Shown: positions 2 through 55,926 of the stretch, piece after piece
Position numbering within the stretch: the first letter of the stretch is position 1
Layout of the letters: every line of letters begins with the position of its first letter
Origin: a virus
Lineage: Duplodnaviria > Heunggongvirae > Uroviricota > Caudoviricetes
Virus record (IMG/VR): IMGVR_UViG_3300006092_000059
Location: 12,516-76,515 of that record
Reading direction: 5' to 3' (one strand)
Length of the DNA: 64,000 nucleotides
Position numbers and translations under genes: made by a program
Notes under the pieces: model-generated
The model's input: the letters and a program-made list of their open reading frames with translations, nothing else
Told to the model about the DNA's origin: nothing
Database searches by the model: none

Positions 2-535
2 AATAAATATGGATATGATTCTTTTAAATTTTTTATTTTAGAGAAATGTTCTAAAGAAATTCTACAGAATAAGGAGCAATATTATATTGATAATTTTAAA
101 CCTGAATATAACAAAAGAATAATTGCTGATTCAAGTAGAGGATTAAAATATGGCCCACAAAGTATAGAGCATAAATTAAAGACTTCTAGGAAATTAAGAA
201 AATTTTCTGATGAATTAGTAAAAGAAATTAGAAATCTAGCTAATTCTGGAGTTACCTATAAAGAAATAGGTGAGAGATTAAACATTAATCATAATTCTTT
301 ATCTAAATTAGTTAATGGTAGAACATATGTTGATTTACATAAAGGTAATATAAAACCTATAAATAAAAATATAAGATCTAAGCTTACAAAAGAGAAGATA
401 GTAGAAATTTATTATAAAGCTTTAAATAAAGAAAATCAGTATAAGTTAGCTGAGGAGTATAATGTAACACAAGGAACTATTTCTAGAATAAAAAATGCTA
501 AAAGAGACTATTCATGGCTAATTGTAGAATTATAA
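2..535 (+). CDS. GIY-YIG homing endonuclease, C-terminal part (5' end truncated by the window edge)
   Basis: Frame 2 translation reads ...KYGYDSFKFFILEKCSKEILQNKEQYYIDNFKPEYN, the end of a GIY-YIG catalytic domain as in I-TevI. It is followed by an HTH/NUMOD-like segment (GVTYKEIGERLNINHNSLSKLVNGRTY). The stop is at 533-535, overlapping the start of the giant ORF. Confidence 0.55.
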   Translation, partial: NKYGYDSFKFFILEKCSKEILQNKEQYYIDNFKPEYNKRIIADSSRGLKYGPQSIEHKLKTSRKLRKFSDELVKEIRNLANSGVTYKEIGERLNINHNSLSKLVNGRTYVDLHKGNIKPINKNIRSKLTKEKIVEIYYKALNKENQYKLAEEYNVTQGTISRIKNAKRDYSWLIVEL

Positions 536-3500
536 GAAATAAGGATGGTATTATAGAAAAGGTATTTGCTAGTAATGGCGAAGAATCTATTCTATATAAG
601 AATTTATTAGGATTAGTAAATAATCTAGCAGATGATAAATTTACTGATTTACAAAATCTATATAAACAATTCCAAGAAATTGGAATAATTAAAGGATTAT
701 CAAAATCTGAAATAGCTCTTGCAATTTATAATAGAATACATAGTCCTAATTTTTTTAACTTTTTTGGAGATTGGGTAAATGACCCTGAAAATTCATCTAA
801 AGTTGTAGATAAGAATGGTGAACCATTAATTGTCTATCATGGTACATCATCACAATTTGAAGAATTTAAAAAAGAAAATATTAAACGTGAAGATGATTTA
901 AGATTAGGAAAAGGTTTCTATTTTACTAATAAAATAAATGAAGCTGCTGATTGGGCTACTGATTATGCCTATCAATATGAAGGTGAAACTAGTAGTGATG
1001 TTTATAGGAGAGGATTAATAATGCCAGTATTTCTTAATATTAGAGAAAATAAAAAAGATGGTATTATAGATGAATCTGTTATTTCAAAAAATACTTATGG
1101 AGAATATGTAGCTTTTAATCCAAATCAGATAAAATCTATATTTAATAAAGGAGATTTTTCATCAAGTTCAAATGTGTTTAGTACAAGAACAAATGAACCA
1201 TCTGCTTTTAATTATAGTGGATTTACTAAAGAAGTTGGATTAAATAGAAAGCAAATAGATACTTCTAAAAAAGCTAAGATTAATAAAGCTGTTCAGAAAT
1301 ACAACCAAAAACATGGAACTTCTTATTATATTAAATGGGCTCAAGTAGGACAATCTAATCTAGAAACTTGGAATATTATAGATAATAAACCTGTTAGTTC
1401 TAAAAAAGAATTTGATTCTGCAGTTGATTTTAGTGTGTCTAAAGAAGATAAAGAACTTAATCATGCAAAATGGTTAGGATTGTGGAATTTTTATAGTGAT
1501 AGACAAAAGATATCTAAATCAAATGATGTTCTAAAAAGAATAGCTGATGATTCTACTTATTTGGGATTGTTAGCTAATAAACTATTACAACATAATCATA
1601 ACAATGTTGATATTCTTTTCCTTACAAGAGAGGAATTAAATGATTATATTGATAAACATGACATTAGATTTTATGAAGGAGTTAGTGTTAGTAATGTAGA
1701 GGGATTTTATGATCACAATACTAATCAAATTGTAATGGTAGATAAGCCTACAGGTAAACTTGCAGGTAATTTACTAGAAGAAATTATACATGCTCTTACT
1801 GTTCAATTTATTAAACATGATGAGAATGAAGGAAGAAAATGGAAAGAACTTTATCTTAAAGTAAAAGAAGAGTTTTCTAAGGAAGGAAAAGATAATTATT
1901 ACTTTACTAATGAGTATGAGTTCTTAGCAGGAGTATTAAGAGATGGTGAGTTTCAAAAATTATTAGCAGGTAAGCCTTCTAACTCAACTTGGTTCTTAAA
2001 CTATTTCCATGAGTTGTTTAATCACTTATTAGATTTAATGACTAAAGTATTTGGTTTAAATTTTAATGAACGTACTTTACTTTATGATGTATATGAGGCG
2101 GGTTCTAGAGTAATTGTACAATCTGCAAGAAGAGCTGATGATTTCTCAGGATTAAAGTCAGATGCATTTGAGTATGTATCTACTACTCTTACTGATGAAC
2201 AAAGAGAAATAATGAGAGATGAGATTTCTTATTTGTCAGAAGAATTAAATAAAGAGTATAACAAACCAGCTCTTGAAAAGATTACAAATGAGCTTTATGA
2301 AGCTTATTCTAAAAGACTTAAGAAAATTGAAGATCACAGATCCTATAAAGATATTAAGGAATTATTTAAAGGTGAAAAGGTAAGTAGATATAAAGCTATT
2401 ACAGATCAGTTAGAAAAAGCTTCACAGGCTAGTGCTACTCCAGAAGGATTAGCTAGAAAAGCTCGTGCTATAGCTTCTGCTATTGTACAGACTAGTTATT
2501 TATTAGATATTACTGCACCTCATATAAAAGATATAATTCGTGATAAGGATGCTGTTGAAAATATACACACACTTCAATATTACTTGTACACACTTTCAGA
2601 TTGGGAAATTACTTTTAATGAAGCTAAAGAACTAATAGGAGAAAGTAATCCTGCTGCTAATAGATATCTTGCTATTAACTTAGATAAGATTGAAAACATT
2701 TATAAAGATATTGCTAAGAATGATGAAACTGGAATGGTAGAAGCTTTAAAGCCTATATTAGTACCAGCAGGTGAGAAATTTATAGAATGGGCAGAGAGAG
2801 AAGAAGCCACTGTAGAAAGTATACGTGATAAAGCTGTTAGAAGAGGAGATACAGACTCAGCTGAAGTTCAGTCTAAAAGATTATTAGATCTTAGAGCTGC
2901 AAAAGAAAGAGTTGATTTCAACAATGATAAAGCTATAATTAAATTTCTTAAAGGTCAAATGGGAGATACTAATGTATTTTCTATGTATCTTGAAAGTTTT
3001 AGAGATAGTCCAGATCCTATTGTAGGTGGATTTACTGCTTTCATTAAGAGAAATCTTGATGAGATAGGTGGAGATATTGCTACTATGCAAATACACTTTG
3101 AACAAGAACTAGCTCCTATCTATAAACAATTAGGTGGAAGATTTGATGCTGAATCATTAGGAAAAGAAATAACTTTTGAGGATAAGAGAGTAGATGGTCA
3201 AGGAGTAGAGTATACTGTTCCTGCATTTCTTAATCCTTTTAAAAACTATAAAGCTGATGAAAAATTATTTAAAAATGCTATTTATAGTTTAGAAGAAAAA
3301 GTTAATGATAAAACAATAACTCCAGAGGAAGAACAACAACTTATTGAGAAGAAAAAAGAATATGCTAGATGGAGAGTTAGTAGTTTGCATAATCCATTTG
3401 TAGATGAGTTTTATAAAAAATACGAGTTATGGGATGATGAGATTGGGCAACTATTAAAATTAGATGTTGATAGAATATTTAGTGAAGTTGATAAGATCCA

Positions 3501-6500
3501 AGAACCTCATATATTCATAGGAAGTGAATTATCTCAAGATGAGTTAGACCAAATAGATGCTTTATACAAAGAGTATTTTTATTTAGGAAATATTACTAAT
3601 CTGGATGGTAGTGCAAAAACTGGAATTGAGTTACAGAAAGCTCTTAGAATGAAAGAAATGAGAGCTTTAAATGTTAAATTTTATGAGTGGGTAGATAATA
3701 TTCCAGCATTTGAAAAAGCTAAATTGGATCATCAGGAAACCTTAATTTCTTCTGGAATCTTAGAAGGAAGTATAGAGTTTAGAGATGCTATGTATAAGTG
3801 GGAAGAAGATAATACTAGGTCTTTTACAGATCCTGCTTATTATGCTGAAAGAGAAGGTAAGATAAGAAAGTTAAAAATTCTTATGTCAAGAGCTACTGAT
3901 GCTAAACTAAAAGAATCTATATTAGCTCCTTTGTATAAAGAACTAATTGACCAAGTATATGGATTAAGAGATGAAGATGGACAACCTGTTGGTAGTGAAA
4001 TTAGTGCATCTAAAACTAAAAGACTCAAGGAAGTTCAAGAACAAATAGAAGCTGAAAGAGAGAAATTTACTGGTATTTCAGGACTCAATGATGATGAAAA
4101 AGAAAGACTTAGTGAGTTATATGATAAGAAGTATTCTGAAGGTTTAAATACAGCTGAGGAAGAAGAATTCAATAATTTAATAGCACAGTCTGATAAACTT
4201 GGAATGCATAAAAAAGATAGAGCTGAAATAATTTCATTATTTACAGAACTAAGAAATATGCAGTCAAGAGTTCCTACTCCTTACTATGTAGAAAGTTTTA
4301 ATAACAACTCAAGTAGACTTGGTATTACTTTGGATGATAGAGGTAATATTCAAGAAGGAGCTGATTTTATTTCTATTCTTGATAGTAGTAAATTATTCAG
4401 ATTATTAGATGACCCACAATTTAGAACTTGGTTTGAGGCTAACCATATTCAAGTTTTAAGATGGGATAAAGATTCTGGAGGTAAAATTCCTAAATGGGAA
4501 AGATTATATCAATGGAGTAAAGTAGTTCCTAGCAATCCTGATTATATTAAGAGAAGACCTGCTTATAAATATTCATATAGAAGAGTTAAAGATGAATATA
4601 GAACTGAAAGAATTGTAGGCAAGACTGTTGATATAAAAGGTGACTGGTTGCCTAAAACTGTAGAAGAAGGTGGAAGTGTTGATTATAGAAATGAAAAATT
4701 CTATGCTTTAAAAGAAAGTGCAGAATCTGGTAATCAGCGTAATAAACTAATATATCAATACTTACAAACTAATTTAAAATATCATTTTAAAGTTCAGGAT
4801 GGAATTCCTAATGTTAATAAATTAGGACATGATTTGCCTAAAGTCAGAAAAGAAACTTCTGCTCGTAATCTAGATCTGTTAAAGAAACCATTAGAACTTC
4901 CTGGCTTAATGTGGGCTAGATTTGTAGATTATTTGAGGTCACTTCGTGAGTATAATACAGATAGTGGAAACTTTGAAGAAGTAGATGGTGAATTAGTTTC
5001 TAATGATTATCAATTAGTGTATGCAGATAAATATGGAACTGAGCTTAACTCAATTCCTATGAAGTATATAACAAGAATGGATGCTGAGAATGTTTCTTTA
5101 AATACTCCTAGATCTATAATGAAGTATGCTTATGCAGCTGCTACTAATAAAAAACTAATAGAAATATCACCTATTGCCCGTACTTTACAAAGAGTGTTAG
5201 ATAATCCAATTAATGCTCCTATTGATGTTAAAAAGAAAATACGTGGTAATACTAAGCAATCTCCTATATTAGGATCTAATAGAAGAAAAGAAGCTGTTGA
5301 TTTTATTATTAAGAGAGAATTTGAAGGATATCAAAAAGCCTATGAGTTAGGTAAATTTGCTGATAGTATGGTAAGTTTACTTAAAAGATTAGGTAGTTGG
5401 TCTTATCTTAAATTTAATATTCCTTCATCTATTGCAAACGTAGTAAATGCTGTTAATCAAAACTGGATTACTGCTGGACAAGGATTTTATTCTTCCAGTG
5501 ATTTTGCTATGTCTGCTACAGATATGTTTAGTAGATTTATTCCAGCATGGCAATCTGACTATTGGATAAATGAGCTTGGAACTAAAAGTCTTGAGGGACA
5601 AATGGCTGAAAGATGGGAATTTATGCAATCTTCAAGTATTGAGGAAGAAGCAGGAGAAAAGTTTGGAGCTAGTATATTGAAAGACTTTGCTGGATTTAAT
5701 TGGATGTTTAATCACAGAGAATGGGGTGAATATTATGTTCAAAGTAGAATTTGGTTAGCTTATCTTAATGGGACTAAAGTAGAACAAACACTTCCTGATG
5801 GTAGTCTTAAAACTCTAGCATTAAAGGATATTTATGAACTTGATGATAATGGTGTAATCAAACTAAAAGATGGTGTATCTGAAGATTGGGGATTCAAAGG
5901 TGAGGAGTTTCTGAAATTAAAAAATACTATTCAGAAGACTATTAGAAACACTCATGGTGCTTATGCTAACTTTGATAAATCAATGGCTGAGCAATATACA
6001 GCTTATAACTTTGCTTTATTCTTAAAGAAATGGTTTATAAGTATGTTTATGCAAAGATTTTCTGCTTCTAATGTAAAAGTTAGTAAAGGTGGAATTACCT
6101 CTACACCTAGATTTAATACTGATGCAGGTTATCAATGGGGATATTATATGGCAGGATTAAATGCTGCTAGTAAACAATGGCAAACTGGACTAAATAACTG
6201 GGCAGATTTAACAGCTGAAGAGAAAGCTTCACTATGGAGAATAGGTCATGAATTAATGGTGGTATTAGCTGCTAGTTTTATAATTCGTATAATAGCAGGT
6301 ATTGATTATGATGATAAAGATCCTTATAAATCATTAAAGGATATGAATTGGTGGGAACTTCAAATGTTATATCAAGTAATGCGTTTGCAAGTAGAAACTG
6401 AAACTTATGTCAGCCCTACACAGTATGCAGACTTTACATTACAATTCATGGCATTTGAGGCTGCTAAGAAGTGGGGTAGATTACTAATATACATAATCAC

Positions 6501-6663
6501 ACAGGAAGAGTATAAAAGAAAAACTGGAGATTATAAGAAGGGTGATAAGAAATGGAAAGCTCAATTCCAGAGAGCTACAGGTTTGCAAGGAATTAGTAGA
6601 ACATTTGATAAGCCTGAAGATTTAGTAAAATCTTATGATAAGAATATTAGGCCTCATATTTAA
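514..6663 (+). CDS. Giant polyvalent (probably virion-packaged or injected) protein with an N-terminal PARP-like H-Y-E ADP-ribosyltransferase domain; long coiled-coil body and a C-terminal hydrophobic segment
   Basis: Uninterrupted 2049-aa ORF. Residues ~100-210 carry IVYHGTSS ... LGKGFYFTN ... YGEYVAFN. These match PARP catalytic HGS ... GKGIYFA ... YNEYIVY (the His, Tyr and catalytic Glu positions). A TM-like stretch LMVVLAASFIIRIIAGI lies near the C-terminus. Confidence 0.8.
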   Translation: MANCRIIRNKDGIIEKVFASNGEESILYKNLLGLVNNLADDKFTDLQNLYKQFQEIGIIKGLSKSEIALAIYNRIHSPNFFNFFGDWVNDPENSSKVVDKNGEPLIVYHGTSSQFEEFKKENIKREDDLRLGKGFYFTNKINEAADWATDYAYQYEGETSSDVYRRGLIMPVFLNIRENKKDGIIDESVISKNTYGEYVAFNPNQIKSIFNKGDFSSSSNVFSTRTNEPSAFNYSGFTKEVGLNRKQIDTSKKAKINKAVQKYNQKHGTSYYIKWAQVGQSNLETWNIIDNKPVSSKKEFDSAVDFSVSKEDKELNHAKWLGLWNFYSDRQKISKSNDVLKRIADDSTYLGLLANKLLQHNHNNVDILFLTREELNDYIDKHDIRFYEGVSVSNVEGFYDHNTNQIVMVDKPTGKLAGNLLEEIIHALTVQFIKHDENEGRKWKELYLKVKEEFSKEGKDNYYFTNEYEFLAGVLRDGEFQKLLAGKPSNSTWFLNYFHELFNHLLDLMTKVFGLNFNERTLLYDVYEAGSRVIVQSARRADDFSGLKSDAFEYVSTTLTDEQREIMRDEISYLSEELNKEYNKPALEKITNELYEAYSKRLKKIEDHRSYKDIKELFKGEKVSRYKAITDQLEKASQASATPEGLARKARAIASAIVQTSYLLDITAPHIKDIIRDKDAVENIHTLQYYLYTLSDWEITFNEAKELIGESNPAANRYLAINLDKIENIYKDIAKNDETGMVEALKPILVPAGEKFIEWAEREEATVESIRDKAVRRGDTDSAEVQSKRLLDLRAAKERVDFNNDKAIIKFLKGQMGDTNVFSMYLESFRDSPDPIVGGFTAFIKRNLDEIGGDIATMQIHFEQELAPIYKQLGGRFDAESLGKEITFEDKRVDGQGVEYTVPAFLNPFKNYKADEKLFKNAIYSLEEKVNDKTITPEEEQQLIEKKKEYARWRVSSLHNPFVDEFYKKYELWDDEIGQLLKLDVDRIFSEVDKIQEPHIFIGSELSQDELDQIDALYKEYFYLGNITNLDGSAKTGIELQKALRMKEMRALNVKFYEWVDNIPAFEKAKLDHQETLISSGILEGSIEFRDAMYKWEEDNTRSFTDPAYYAEREGKIRKLKILMSRATDAKLKESILAPLYKELIDQVYGLRDEDGQPVGSEISASKTKRLKEVQEQIEAEREKFTGISGLNDDEKERLSELYDKKYSEGLNTAEEEEFNNLIAQSDKLGMHKKDRAEIISLFTELRNMQSRVPTPYYVESFNNNSSRLGITLDDRGNIQEGADFISILDSSKLFRLLDDPQFRTWFEANHIQVLRWDKDSGGKIPKWERLYQWSKVVPSNPDYIKRRPAYKYSYRRVKDEYRTERIVGKTVDIKGDWLPKTVEEGGSVDYRNEKFYALKESAESGNQRNKLIYQYLQTNLKYHFKVQDGIPNVNKLGHDLPKVRKETSARNLDLLKKPLELPGLMWARFVDYLRSLREYNTDSGNFEEVDGELVSNDYQLVYADKYGTELNSIPMKYITRMDAENVSLNTPRSIMKYAYAAATNKKLIEISPIARTLQRVLDNPINAPIDVKKKIRGNTKQSPILGSNRRKEAVDFIIKREFEGYQKAYELGKFADSMVSLLKRLGSWSYLKFNIPSSIANVVNAVNQNWITAGQGFYSSSDFAMSATDMFSRFIPAWQSDYWINELGTKSLEGQMAERWEFMQSSSIEEEAGEKFGASILKDFAGFNWMFNHREWGEYYVQSRIWLAYLNGTKVEQTLPDGSLKTLALKDIYELDDNGVIKLKDGVSEDWGFKGEEFLKLKNTIQKTIRNTHGAYANFDKSMAEQYTAYNFALFLKKWFISMFMQRFSASNVKVSKGGITSTPRFNTDAGYQWGYYMAGLNAASKQWQTGLNNWADLTAEEKASLWRIGHELMVVLAASFIIRIIAGIDYDDKDPYKSLKDMNWWELQMLYQVMRLQVETETYVSPTQYADFTLQFMAFEAAKKWGRLLIYIITQEEYKRKTGDYKKGDKKWKAQFQRATGLQGISRTFDKPEDLVKSYDKNIRPHI

Positions 6664-12325: not shown

Positions 12326-12519
12326 CTTATATCATTTTCTAAATTTTCAAATATTACATCATAAATATCATTAAATATTTTTTGATACTTTGGTAGAAAT
12401 ACATAAGCTTCCATTTTTCTATCGTATTTACTATGCTTTTCTTTATTATGAGCAGCAATAGCTTCTACATATTCAAAGGCAATTTTACTTACTACTTCTA
12501 CTTTATTAGTTTTACTCAT
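12322..12519 (-). CDS. hypothetical protein
   Basis: 65-aa ORF. Its start overlaps the stop of the upstream small ORF as ATGA. Confidence 0.35.
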   Translation of the reverse strand: MSKTNKVEVVSKIAFEYVEAIAAHNKEKHSKYDRKMEAYVFLPKYQKIFNDIYDVIFENLENDIR

Positions 12520-51920: not shown

Positions 51921-52394
51921 TTATTTGTATTTCTTGTTTCTTCCTCTAAAGTTTCTTGTCTGAGAATGACAATTAGGACAAAGTAGTTGTAGATTAGTAA
52001 AGGTATGATCATTACTAATACCGTTAATATGATCTAATTCTAGAACAATTACTGAATCATTCCATTCACATATTCCACAACATTTACATTTATACTCTAA
52101 TAATCCTTCTCGTAATAATCTCTTTTTTAGATGATTTATACTTATAAATAAACTATCCTTTACTAGAATATCTTCTAATTTAATATCTTTTTTAAATTTT
52201 CTAAATCTACTTCCTTGATTCCAAGCTTTTCCAGTAAAATGTGACGTATCTATATTAAATTCCTTTATCTTAAAATTTAAAGTTCGATAGTTACCTCCTA
52301 CAGGTTTAATGTTTAATTTTCTACATACATCTGCTATTGATAAACTTTCTTTAATGGTATTTTCTAATTCTTCTTTTGTAAATTTGTATTTCAT
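51921..52394 (-). CDS. HNH homing endonuclease
   Basis: CKCCGICEW ... LELDHINGISNDHTFTNLQLLCPNCHSQT. Confidence 0.65.
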   Translation of the reverse strand: MKYKFTKEELENTIKESLSIADVCRKLNIKPVGGNYRTLNFKIKEFNIDTSHFTGKAWNQGSRFRKFKKDIKLEDILVKDSLFISINHLKKRLLREGLLEYKCKCCGICEWNDSVIVLELDHINGISNDHTFTNLQLLCPNCHSQTRNFRGRNKKYK

Positions 52395-54196: not shown

Positions 54197-54403
54197 CTAC
54201 CAACTTATATGTTTACTACCTACAGTATATCCTAATTCAGTTAGTCTTTTCTTTACTGAGTCAGTAATAAGATCTTCAGTACTTGTATTATACTTTCCAT
54301 TATTAGCAGCTGCTTGAATTTGGAATATTAAAGTATTATACATTCTTTCATCTCTTTCTTGATTTTTTTCAAGAGATTTCTTTTTTGCTTCTTCTGCTGT
54401 CAT
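54197..54403 (-). CDS. hypothetical protein (start trimmed to the internal Met; the track ORF start at 54454 overlaps tRNA-Trp)
   Basis: MTAEEAKKKSLEKNQ... Confidence 0.3.
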   Translation of the reverse strand: MTAEEAKKKSLEKNQERDERMYNTLIFQIQAAANNGKYNTSTEDLITDSVKKRLTELGYTVGSKHISW

Positions 54404-54424
54404 ATTTTTATTTTTTTTATTTAG

Positions 54425-54496
54425 CACCCCAGACTGGATTCGAACCAATATCACTGGTTTTGGAGACCAGTATACTAACCATTATACTACTGAGAT
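54425..54496 (-). tRNA. tRNA-Trp (anticodon CCA)
   Basis: Reverse complement ATCTCAG-TA-GTAT ... anticodon stem CTGGT/ACCAG with loop CTCCAAA ... T arm ATTGG-TTCGAAT-CCAGT ... acceptor CTGGGGT. The acceptor pairs fully, with two G-U. Confidence 0.6.
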
Positions 54497-54804
54497 AAAA
54501 AATCTTTTCTGTCCAATTTCTAAGTGGACTAAATTTATTTACAATATCTACTTAAAAACGCAGATAGTCTTGATAAATAATATTTATCTTTACATAAAAC
54601 AACACCTACTTAGATTAGGTCTAATAATTACCAAATTAGGCTTCAAGCTTAGCTTACATGGATATTTAACGAGCCTCTTATTAGTGTTTTACTTCAAGCA
54701 GAAAAGACTTTGTGGAGATGGAGGGCAATTGTTATAGTTTGTTAATTCATTTGGAAATTTCAAAGAAATGTGTTATATTTACCACATCTCCAAAATAACT
54801 AAAC

Positions 54805-55269
54805 ATGAATATAGATTACATTTCTGGATTCTTTGATGCTGATGGCTCTATCACTATGTCATATAGCTCTAAGAAAGATACTTTTAGGACTATAAAAATA
54901 GACTTTACTAATAATGAAAAAGATATTTTAATATCTATTCAAAAATTTTTATTAGAAAATTATAGTATTAAAGCTTATATAACTTCTAAGGAAATTAAAA
55001 AAGCTAATCATAATAAAGCTTATGCTTTATCTGTGTCAAGCAATCAAATGTGTTATGAATTATGTAAAATTTTAAAATCAATACATCCTAAAAAACTACA
55101 TAGGATTAATACAATTTTAAAATATCATAATATTGTAACAAAAAGAAATGGAAAATATAATTATAAACAAACTATGAGAAAATTGGCTTATGAAAGACTA
55201 TTTTTCTCCTCACTTTTTCAAGTAAGATCGGACTATATCATCATCCCCACAAGGGGAGTAGGAAGCTAA
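54805..55269 (+). CDS. LAGLIDADG homing endonuclease (single-motif, I-CreI-like size)
   Basis: ISGFFDADGS is the LAGLIDADG motif at residues 6-15. 154 aa. It is the only + strand gene in a long - strand block. Confidence 0.75.
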   Translation: MNIDYISGFFDADGSITMSYSSKKDTFRTIKIDFTNNEKDILISIQKFLLENYSIKAYITSKEIKKANHNKAYALSVSSNQMCYELCKILKSIHPKKLHRINTILKYHNIVTKRNGKYNYKQTMRKLAYERLFFSSLFQVRSDYIIIPTRGVGS

Positions 55270-55385
55270 ATCTGGTTATTAAGAACACTTTAGTTCTCCA
55301 GTAGTCTCTGAACCTTTACAAAATGTATTTTGTACTTGGCTGCTGATTGGCATAGATTTTTCCTTAGCTTTCCAGCAATTCATCC
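55225..55385 (-). ncRNA. group I intron catalytic core (P, Q, R, S elements) on the - strand; the total extent, probably ~55150-55520, and the host gene are unresolved
   Basis: On the - strand, in the correct order and spacing: P AATTGCTGGAAA (consensus AATTGCGGGAAA; + strand coordinates 55369-55380). Q AATCAGCAGC (AATCCGCAGC; 55339-55348). R TTCAGAGACTAC (TCAGAGACTACA; 55301-55312). S ATGATATAGTCC (AAGATATAGTCC; 55230-55241). Hairpins lie between R and S (AGAAC ... GTTCT, TCCCC ... GGGGA). Confidence 0.55.
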
Positions 55386-55610
55386 TATTTTTACATTAGT
55401 GTTGCCACTAAGTCAACCCTTTGAGTTGAACCCTCGTATTCTCTACAGGTATTTAGAAAATTTATTTATAAGCTTAGGCATATTTTAAGAAAATAGCCAA
55501 AATTAGGGCTGATCAGAATTGCTTCTAATTCAGAGTCCACCATTGTATTTTGTTGAAAACACAAAAAACTGCGCTATTTACCCAATAGCAGGTTAGTAGT
55601 CTTCTGTTCC

Positions 55611-55744
55611 TAAGCTTCTACTAGCTCGAGGCCTTGATATGCAGCAACTTCTTCTTCAGAAATATTATCTGCAATTCCCTCTAAGAGGTCATCAATGCCA
55701 GTCATGTTCAACTTACTGTTGTCATTTACTGTTTCAGTATCCAT
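55611..55744 (-). CDS. possible small acidic protein (~44 aa, below the ORF-track cutoff)
   Basis: Reverse strand reads MDTETVNDNSKLNMTGIDDLLEGIADNISEEEVAAYQGLELVEA. Confidence 0.2.
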
Positions 55745-55926
55745 TTTTATGATGTAGTATACCAACCATCAACTTAATTTTCTAACATATTGTAAAGAGC
55801 TTGCCCGTCATCCCCATGGTGATAACAGAGTAGGTGAGGTTAAAGTAAACATCAGGCACAGGTACGTACGATGTGTGTGCAGTATATTTTACCTAGTACA
55901 TTTCACTTTCTCTGTTATCAGTATTT

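Follow-up and report, generated by a model that had tools for sequence, protein, structure and literature searches.

Exons and splice junction of the split gene

We analyzed a 64,000-nucleotide (nt) stretch of a phage genome from the class Caudoviricetes (IMG/VR record IMGVR_UViG_3300006092_000059, positions 12,516 to 76,515), hereafter the window, whose own numbering is used throughout. The minus strand from 55815 to 54713 is very probably a phage-encoded transfer-messenger RNA (tmRNA; ssrA) gene with a 698-nt mobile group I intron in its T-loop, and inside this intron, on the opposite strand, lies a LAGLIDADG homing endonuclease gene (HEG). The exons, the splice junction, the covarying ribozyme helices and an intact LAGLIDADG gene under selection were computed directly. 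A first-pass annotation of positions 54497-55926 had described a group I core on the minus strand, no minus-strand open reading frame (ORF) of 60 amino acids (aa) or more, and no recognisable host gene. The first two statements hold, whereas the flanks prove to be the two exons of the tmRNA gene, and among the options then listed, an intron in an unannotated non-coding RNA was the correct one.

The 5' exon (55424-55815, minus strand; 392 nt) contains the 5' strand of the acceptor stem (GGGGAUG), the P2 helix and the mRNA-like domain, and ends with the 5' strand of the T-stem and a complete 7-nt T-loop (GAGGG-UUCAACU), as placed by the ARAGORN call on the spliced sequence. The 3' exon (54713-54725, minus strand) has only 13 nt, namely the 3' strand of the T-stem (CCCUC), the acceptor strand CAUCUCC and the discriminator A; CCA is not fully encoded after it, the next bases being CAA. 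The minus strand 5' of the ribozyme core reads GGGGATGACGGG, and the 5' strand of P1, GAGGGTTCAACT, resembles a T-stem and T-loop. The segment CCCTCCATCTCCA, 698 nt downstream and right after a G, resembles the 3' strands of the T-stem and acceptor stem with the discriminator base.

Neither ARAGORN nor Rfam reported a tmRNA in the unspliced window, because the gene is split. When 55423-54726 was deleted in silico, ARAGORN called a tmRNA of 405 nt; no such call was obtained from 300 random deletions of 500-800 nt or from 200 shuffles. The call was kept only when both junctions were shifted jointly so that the 7-nt loop length was preserved, and on this permitted diagonal the group I rules (a U at position -1 in a U.G pair and a terminal G) single out one junction, with the 5' exon ending at 55424, the intron running from 55423 to 54726 and the 3' exon from 54725 to 54713. 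The predicted ligated junction joins GGGUUCAACU to CCCUCCAUCUCCA. The ligated exons restore a T-stem of 5 bp with a 7-nt loop (GAGGG-UUCAACU/CCCUC, the slash marking the junction) and a 7-bp acceptor stem (GGGGAUG/CAUCUCC) with G3.U70, the alanine identity pair. An unconstrained minimum free energy fold of the spliced RNA has the acceptor stem closed, the T-arm formed and a long P2-type helix (z = -3.4, equalled by none of 100 shuffles).

The ligated-exon sequence was found uninterrupted in two viral contigs. An intron-less tmRNA (locus L001; Rfam tmRNA model RF00023, 92.5 bits) is identical to the ligated exons of the window over its 3'-terminal 24 nt, and thus provides the intron-less relative that had been proposed for defining the junction. 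In another locus (L011), the RF00023 match (85.4 bits) abuts a match to the group I intron model RF00028 (83.3 bits), with a homologous ribozyme at the same T-loop insertion point (subsite) as in the window.

The ribozyme core

The group I intron (54726-55423, minus strand; 698 nt) is inserted after T-loop nucleotide 7. In a cmsearch analysis, the minus strand at 55209-55435 matched the full-length RF00028 model (positions 1-253) with 88.1 bits (E = 4e-21), above the gathering score of 50 bits. The P, Q, R and S strings read earlier lie in canonical order at 55380-55369, 55348-55339, 55312-55301 and 55241-55230, and form the P4 and P7 pairings in both the helix parse and an alignment based on a covariance model (CM). 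The hairpins that had been noticed between R and S are also present; their identity is P7.1/P7.2, as in subgroup IA, and P8.

By combining RF00028, helices parsed by hand and the CM-based alignment, we assigned the core P1-P9 to 55209-55429 (minus strand): P1 at 55429-55413, P2 at 55411-55396, P3 at 55387-83 and 55263-59, P4 at 55378-73 and 55345-40, P5 at 55368-50, P6/P6a at 55339-13, P7 at 55306-02 and 55235-31, P7.1/P7.2 at 55301-55272, P8 at 55257-44 and P9, with a GAAA loop, at 55226-09. The U at -1 (55424) makes a U.G pair in P1 (UCAACU/C with GGGUUGA), and the last intron base is G54726 (omega G), directly before the 3' exon.

Helices P1-P9 were parsed by hand in six sequences, and a script check showed that the segments rebuild each sequence exactly. 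In this parse 359 of 363 cells were paired and 31 of 62 base pairs had compensatory double changes; P1 changes in concert with the exon (TCAACT/GGGTTGA in one form, TCGACT/GGGTCGA in another), P4 likewise covaries (TTGCTG/CAGCAG versus TTCAAG/CTTGAG), and P7 is invariant. Much of this signal was supplied by one locus, L012, in which Rfam does not report the intron, and we therefore built an independent CM (R1) of P3-P8 from five sequences, leaving out L012 and a further locus, L008. The independent CM gave 183 bits for L008, 104 bits for L012 and 78-98 bits for introns at T-loop subsites 3 and 7, with no match in the intron-less controls. In a CM-based alignment of 22 sequences, 97.5% of the cells were paired (72.6 +/- 1.2% in shuffles, none of 500 reaching this value), 23 of 33 pairs were changed on both sides (16.3 +/- 1.5 in shuffles), and the covariation score was 0.555, compared with at most 0.136 for slid registers.

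RF00028 was unreported in both L008 and L012, permissive filters included. The L008 ribozyme (2923-3094, minus strand) is 89% identical to that of L005, which RF00028 scores at 96.8 bits. AT-rich phage introns can drop out at the Rfam filters.

The LAGLIDADG gene on the opposite strand

The HEG (54805-55269, plus strand; 154 aa, single motif) lies antisense inside the intron, downstream of P9. Its earlier assignment as a single-motif LAGLIDADG gene is confirmed by Pfam (LAGLIDADG_3, PF14528, 34.1 bits with a cutoff of 22.5; LAGLIDADG_1, PF00961, 26.0 bits with a cutoff of 23.1), by an AlphaFold2 (AF2) model with an alpha-beta-beta-alpha-beta-beta-alpha core (predicted local distance difference test score, pLDDT, 86; predicted template modelling score, pTM, 0.75) and by fold matches. 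A Foldseek search of the PDB gave 27 matches at E <= 0.001, all of them LAGLIDADG proteins (endonucleases and the bifunctional I-AniI); I-Vdi141I was the best (E = 3.5e-5, probability 1.00), and I-CreI and I-OnuI were also matched. We found 188 homologues, with a typical size of 139 aa, and identical copies in one Joint Genome Institute (JGI) contig (76.5 kb) and one Logan contig. The ratio of nonsynonymous to synonymous substitutions (dN/dS) was 0.20, at dS 0.44, in a comparison with the 86%-identical copy in L004, which shows that the HEG is under purifying selection.

With all helices intact and covarying, and with the HEG under purifying selection, the "degenerate intron" among the earlier options is not supported. 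A ribozyme orphaned from any host gene, or an intron and its endonuclease in the act of invading an intergenic spacer, would agree with standard annotation, which gives no gene in the flanks. Such a reading is scarcely conceivable for an intron of this kind, whose exons reconstitute a tmRNA and whose site of insertion is found again in numerous independent tmRNA genes, Rfam-validated ones included.

It is also highly improbable that the LAGLIDADG protein is chiefly a maturase that aids ribozyme folding and not a DNA endonuclease. Some LAGLIDADG proteins are indeed maturases or bifunctional, and I-AniI and the bI3 maturase are among the sequence and fold matches. However, the GFFDADG motif with its catalytic acidic residue is invariant in 28 of 28 sequences, and over its full length the fold is best matched by the homodimeric endonucleases I-Vdi141I and I-CreI. 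Moreover, introns of this family survive without a HEG (L010 and L011), so that the ribozyme does not need the protein, and the element occurs in genomes with unrelated flanks, suggesting mobility.

The conserved body of the HEG product ends near residue 139 (...AYERLFFSSLFQ), and in every intron-borne antisense member its SLFQ codons lie opposite the GAAA hairpin of P9. Residues 140-154 (VRSDYIIIPTRGVGS) are a read-through, antisense to S, P8 and the 3' strand of P3. In the clade of the window, the frame stays open through RSDYIIIP, whose codons are antisense to the S element GAUGAUGAUAUAGUC, which is invariant, and stops opposite the 3' strand of P3. The tail is disordered in the AF2 model (pLDDT < 50 for residues 141-154), and the alignment shows that it is missing from the subsite-3 clade. 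The HEG is thus antisense to the 3' part of the ribozyme core, as the first-pass annotation had stated, but it overlaps the Rfam-matched core by 61 nt (P9, the 3' strand of P7 that is the S element, P8 and the 3' strand of P3) instead of about 40 nt. This overlap therefore reflects tight packing and read-through, and the conservation of the tail is imposed by the ribozyme on the opposite strand.

The candidate intron-less T-arm target of the endonuclease is GACGAGGGTTCAACTCCCTCCATCTCCA, and no intact target site was found within the window when up to three mismatches were allowed. A viral tRNA-Ala(GGC) gene (L002, 49-122, minus strand) is identical to the ligated exons of the window over its T-arm and acceptor 3' strand (25 nt). 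An endonuclease recognising ligated-exon DNA might also see tRNA-Ala genes of this kind.

Signals around the endonuclease gene

A promoter-like site lies in the intron tail (54751-54779, plus strand), 26 nt before the ATG of the HEG. It reads TTGGAA-17 nt-TATATT with TG upstream (9 of 12 consensus matches), and the position is conserved, with TTGACA-17-TATATT in L005 and TTGATT-17-TATATT in L008. From this positional conservation, and from nothing else, we regard the site as a putative promoter of the HEG. The block can also be read as TTTG...TAnnTTTA, which resembles the Bacteroidota-type promoter TTTG...TAnnTTTG. A terminator-like hairpin with a T-run is present on the plus strand at 55862-55880, just past the 5' end of the tmRNA gene; its use would give a HEG transcript that runs antisense to the entire tmRNA 5' exon.

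An 8-bp stem (TGGAGATG/CATCTCCA) upstream of the HEG had been suggested to occlude its ribosome-binding site. The complementarity is in the sequence, with arms at 54792-54785 and 54720-54713, but it is absent from L005 and L012 and reduced to 5 nt in L008. The arm CATCTCCA (54720-54713) is the tmRNA 3' acceptor strand with the discriminator base; the other, UGGAGAUG by sequence coordinates, is in the intron (54785-54792, minus strand). On the mRNA strand of the HEG the upstream arm precedes the predicted promoter, and no Shine-Dalgarno-like sequence is present at the stem to be occluded. The proposed occlusion is hence not supported, and the stem is probably a matter of chance or specific to the lineage.

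The antisense layout might be mainly regulatory, in that RNA from the HEG promoter pairs with P3', P8, P7' and P9, possibly with the whole tmRNA, and controls splicing or tmRNA maturation, or in that transcription of the tmRNA represses the HEG. The obligatory 61-nt overlap with core elements, the retention of the P9 overlap in all intron-borne antisense members and the location of the only plus-strand terminator-like hairpin beyond the tmRNA 5' end would suit such a role. On the other hand, the same HEG family is also found in the sense orientation (L033 and L034) and free-standing (L003), so neither partner needs antisense pairing; the model shows the read-through tail as disordered, members of the subsite-3 clade lack it, and tight packing explains the overlap simply. 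We consider that a mainly regulatory role has only a slight chance of being correct.

The tmRNA body and its tag frame

In truncated mode, RF00023 aligned with the 5' exon alone from 55815 to 55424, precisely the predicted limits, and covered model positions 1-358 of 374 with a truncated 3' end. The tag reading frame (55610-55672, minus strand) ends with the stop codon UAG at 55612-55610, which is read from the sequence as lying within the loop of a 6-bp hairpin (UAGUAG...CUACUA). Candidate starts of the frame are GCU or GCA. The ARAGORN start at 55645 gives AAYQGLELVEA*, and an alternative in-frame GCA at 55672 gives ADNISEEEVAAYQGLELVEA*. The latter is suggested by the similar A(E)DN... tag starts in L010 and L011, and the resume codon is a candidate. 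In these two HEG-less relatives the tags are acidic and, at about 32-36 aa, unusually long; one, with the similar A(E)DN start, is AEDNTDAILAEAEYIFNNASEFLGEVEEEYLLAA. The acidic, non-canonical tags possibly indicate a non-standard fate of tagged proteins in the phage of the window and these relatives.

Several points weigh against our assignment of the locus to a functional, mobile, intron-containing tmRNA gene. The RF00023 score of the 5' exon alone was weak (5.4 bits, E = 4.1), and outside the tRNA-like domain the tmRNA body has no detectable similarity to other phage tmRNAs; the tmRNA identity therefore rests on the ARAGORN call, the structural features and the element's homology. The acidic tag has ...LELVEA at its end instead of the usual (L/V)AA, and the ARAGORN output carries the remark 'Tag not identified'. 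A sigma-70 scan alone was not significant (15 sites, compared with 9.4 +/- 3.9 in shuffles), and the endonuclease's target site is presumed from how homing endonucleases behave in general. The anatomy of the locus is well supported; we infer the splicing, the tmRNA function, the expression of the HEG and the homing.

The weak body score, the lack of similarity to other tmRNAs and the unidentified acidic tag ending in VEA would also fit a tmRNA-derived host RNA that is no longer canonical, such as a tRNA-like decoy or a rescue RNA whose non-proteolytic tag manipulates host trans-translation. A precedent is the tmRNA-like RNA of phage DS6A, which has no tag frame and inhibits the host tmRNA (cited in PMC11915505). 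Against this, the tag frame is open with an alanine start and its stop lies in the hairpin loop, the acceptor stem is intact and keeps G3.U70, as the T-arm and the P2 helix are also intact, and relatives carry conventional ...AA tags. We regard a non-canonical RNA as unlikely; the anatomy of the intron and the HEG would be unchanged by it.

Related loci

In all loci fetched for nearer relatives of the HEG (at least 58% identical), the HEG is the sole plus-strand gene among minus-strand neighbours. Antisense HEGs inside introns at the subsite of the window were found in L005/L006 (HEG 76% identical, intron 716 nt), L008 (72%, 724 nt) and L012 (43%, 703 nt). Searches of viral contigs with the exact tmRNA 5' end or the exact 5' junction gave no matches, while a degenerate junction pattern gave six more contigs, unique or duplicate (L010, L011, L014 and L017-19), all interrupted at the same subsite by an intron of 255-257 nt that has no HEG. 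The degenerate pattern had no matches in 185,579 species-representative genomes. When the 1.6-kb region was compared by BLAST with 50,697 phage records, only the ribozyme core was matched, in crAss-like phages and the S-PM2 psbA intron, and the locus has no close relative there.

In L010 (minus strand) and L011 (2827-3423, minus strand), a gene for a 198-aa EndoVII/HNH-like endonuclease (PHROG endonuclease, 1e-16) converges on the split tmRNA gene, and its last seven codons overlap the tmRNA 3' exon.

Two contigs of about 100 kb (L020 and L022) have a HEG of 139-141 aa, typical of the family, antisense in a tmRNA intron after the second loop nucleotide. L020 is a phage-like contig of 100 kb with several tRNAs besides the split tmRNA, and a TROVE/Ro60-like gene of 469 aa (538-1947, minus strand) lies one gene away, about 0.5 kb past the end of the split tmRNA gene on the side of the HEG, which suggests a phage-encoded RNA quality-control module.

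Among bacterial and archaeal genomes, the HEG family was found only in Bacteroidota, plus one weak match (28% identity) in an archaeal metagenome-assembled genome (MAG). Each bacterial-genome locus resolved by Rfam holds a tmRNA gene (RF00023, 80-126 bits). In two Flavobacteriaceae MAG contigs (L024 and L025) the HEG is antisense at subsite 7 and flanked by ordinary bacterial genes; subsite 8, also considered for these two, was rejected since the omega-G rule gives subsite 7. The HEG is in the sense orientation at subsite 3, as verified, in L033 (Marinoscillum) and L034 (Prolixibacteraceae), and by Rfam strand in six to eight further loci. L026 was counted by Rfam strand only; an intron of 213 nt considered for it has a false 3' splice site, since the HEG lies past it.

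Intron-less tmRNA genes with a HEG nearby were also found. In L003 (1007-1812) an intact intron-less tmRNA (ARAGORN tag GNTSYRVAA) is followed, about 22 nt past its 3' end, by a free-standing antisense HEG, and in L036 (1501-2175) a HEG fragment lies just past the 3' end of an intron-less tmRNA. This layout is a possible precursor or remnant of the intron-borne arrangement. The HEG family thus occupies T-loop subsites 3, 7 and 8, in the sense or antisense orientation, or stands free beside an intron-less tmRNA. Flanking genes in common with the window were found in L004 only, and the remaining loci share the element alone, which fits horizontal spread.

A proposed course of splicing and homing

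We propose that the minus-strand transcript would fold into the ribozyme, with guanosine attacking after U55424, which is held in the P1 U.G pair, and that omega G54726 would then direct exon ligation. Ligation would restore the T-arm (GAGGG-UUCAACU-CCCUC) and allow the 7-bp acceptor stem with G3.U70 to close, and the 405-nt RNA could then undergo end processing, CCA addition and charging with alanine, as trans-translation requires. The HEG, placed after P9 on the opposite strand, would be driven by a promoter of its own within the intron tail; its expression would therefore be uncoupled from that of the tmRNA, and ribosomes would stay off the ribozyme. The homodimeric enzyme is expected to cleave tmRNA genes that lack the intron, within their T-arm-encoding DNA, and repair from the intron-bearing copy would spread intron and HEG together (homing), whereas the phage's own tmRNA copy would be immune because its target is split. 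One endonuclease lineage has probably specialised on tmRNA T-loop DNA of Bacteroidota and their phages, with intron partners at three subsites.

A further-reaching scenario, which we offer as a speculation and consider rather doubtful, is that a LAGLIDADG lineage dedicated to T-loop DNA has repeatedly switched partners (free-standing, or intron-borne at three subsites 1-5 nt apart and in both orientations), that phages are vehicles of tmRNA introns among Bacteroidota, and that the acidic-tag phage tmRNA may redirect host ribosome rescue to the benefit of the phage. If this were true, the partner switching would offer a natural series in which the association of homing endonucleases with introns could be tested.

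With the exons assigned, what looked like an orphan ribozyme is accounted for. The case also illustrates how split RNA genes get missed, the phage tmRNA having stayed unannotated since ARAGORN and Rfam fail on the unspliced DNA. The related loci form a set that includes intron-less genes, HEG-less introns beside a nuclease gene, and introns at three subsites whose HEG is in either orientation.

Other genes of the window

The window encodes a family A DNA polymerase, a ribonucleotide reductase, a nicotinate phosphoribosyltransferase (NAPRTase) and seven tRNAs; nearly all genes of the window are on the minus strand, and the polymerase is nearest to those of crAss-like phages (28-32% identity). 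The sole large plus-strand gene (514-6663) encodes a 2049-aa protein with an ART-PolyVal ADP-ribosyltransferase domain. A free-standing HNH ORF (51921-52394, minus strand; Pfam HNH, 5e-07) between tRNA-His and tRNA-Leu/tRNA-Gln is a second putative homing nuclease, tied to the tRNA cluster. An 85-aa ORF with a GTG start (54197-54454, minus strand) overlaps tRNA-Trp (54424-54496, minus strand), and its true start is probably an internal ATG (MTAEEAKKK...).

Comparison with known systems

Intron-form tmRNA genes were first found in Clostridium botulinum, and a tmRNA database of 2025 holds 883 unique sequences, all interrupted in the T-loop, at four subsites (2, 3, 7 and 8) (PMC11915505). LAGLIDADG HEGs are present in 23 of 844 of these introns, after P9 or in P7.1, and subsite position 8 is recorded only in Saprospiraceae (PMC11915505). 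The window intron follows the same -1 U.G and omega G rules, has P7.1/P7.2 as in subgroup IA and belongs to the minority bearing a LAGLIDADG HEG. Its insertion after the seventh loop nucleotide corresponds to 'position 8' by our reading of the database numbering. It differs from that set in sitting in a phage genome, in having an antisense HEG with its own putative promoter that overlaps the ribozyme core, and in a tmRNA body too divergent for RF00023. Neither the orientation of the HEG nor phage examples are treated in the database paper (PMC11915505), no data on phages, Saprospiraceae or orientation were found in its text supplements, and in the literature searched no phage example or HEG orientation is described for tmRNA introns.

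The nearest bacterial counterparts are chromosomal tmRNA introns of Bacteroidota, from Flavobacteriaceae MAGs (L024 and L025), Marinoscillum (L033 and L035), Ekhidna (L032) and Prolixibacteraceae (L030 and L034). They share with the window a homologous ribozyme (78-98 bits with R1), the T-loop location and a LAGLIDADG gene 37-65% identical to that of the window and placed after P9, which in L024 and L025 is likewise antisense. In contrast, they use subsite 7 or 3 and not 8, most of their HEGs are in the sense orientation, their tmRNA bodies are canonical (RF00023, 80-126 bits) and their setting is a bacterial chromosome, with genes for malate dehydrogenase and a flavin reductase-like protein flanking L024.

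Collaborative homing has been described for the psbA intron of cyanophage S-PM2 and the free-standing endonuclease F-CphI (PMC3984707, PMC6083498). The S-PM2 intron has about 70% identity to the window ribozyme core. The ORF-less introns of L010 and L011 with their adjacent EndoVII/HNH-like gene resemble the proposed intermediate states, as does the free-standing LAGLIDADG gene beside the intron-less tmRNA of L003. The window differs in that its HEG is already borne by the intron and the target is an RNA gene and not a protein gene.

Antisense HEGs are also known from group I introns of nuclear ribosomal DNA (rDNA), for example at position L2066 (PMC9548176). In both cases the HEG is on the strand opposite to the ribozyme and the host RNA gene and requires separate expression signals. 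However, the rDNA examples are eukaryotic His-Cys box genes with Pol II transcription and spliceosomal introns, whereas the window has a LAGLIDADG gene of bacterial type, a putative sigma-70-like or Bacteroidota-like promoter in the intron and a 61-nt overlap with the core. With I-CreI and I-Vdi141I the window protein shares a size of about 140-160 aa, one motif, the alpha-beta-beta-alpha-beta-beta-alpha fold and an intron-encoded origin, but the sequence identity is only 16-20%, the window gene is antisense and its product has a disordered tail of 15 residues set by the ribozyme on the opposite strand.

Taken together, the element is of a known kind, a mobile group I intron in the T-loop of tmRNA, here borne by a phage and carrying an antisense HEG, and does not represent a new type of system. 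It extends intron-form tmRNA, described from bacteria in the literature searched, to phages, and documents an antisense, putatively self-promoted HEG packed against, and partly overlapping, a bacterial-type ribozyme.

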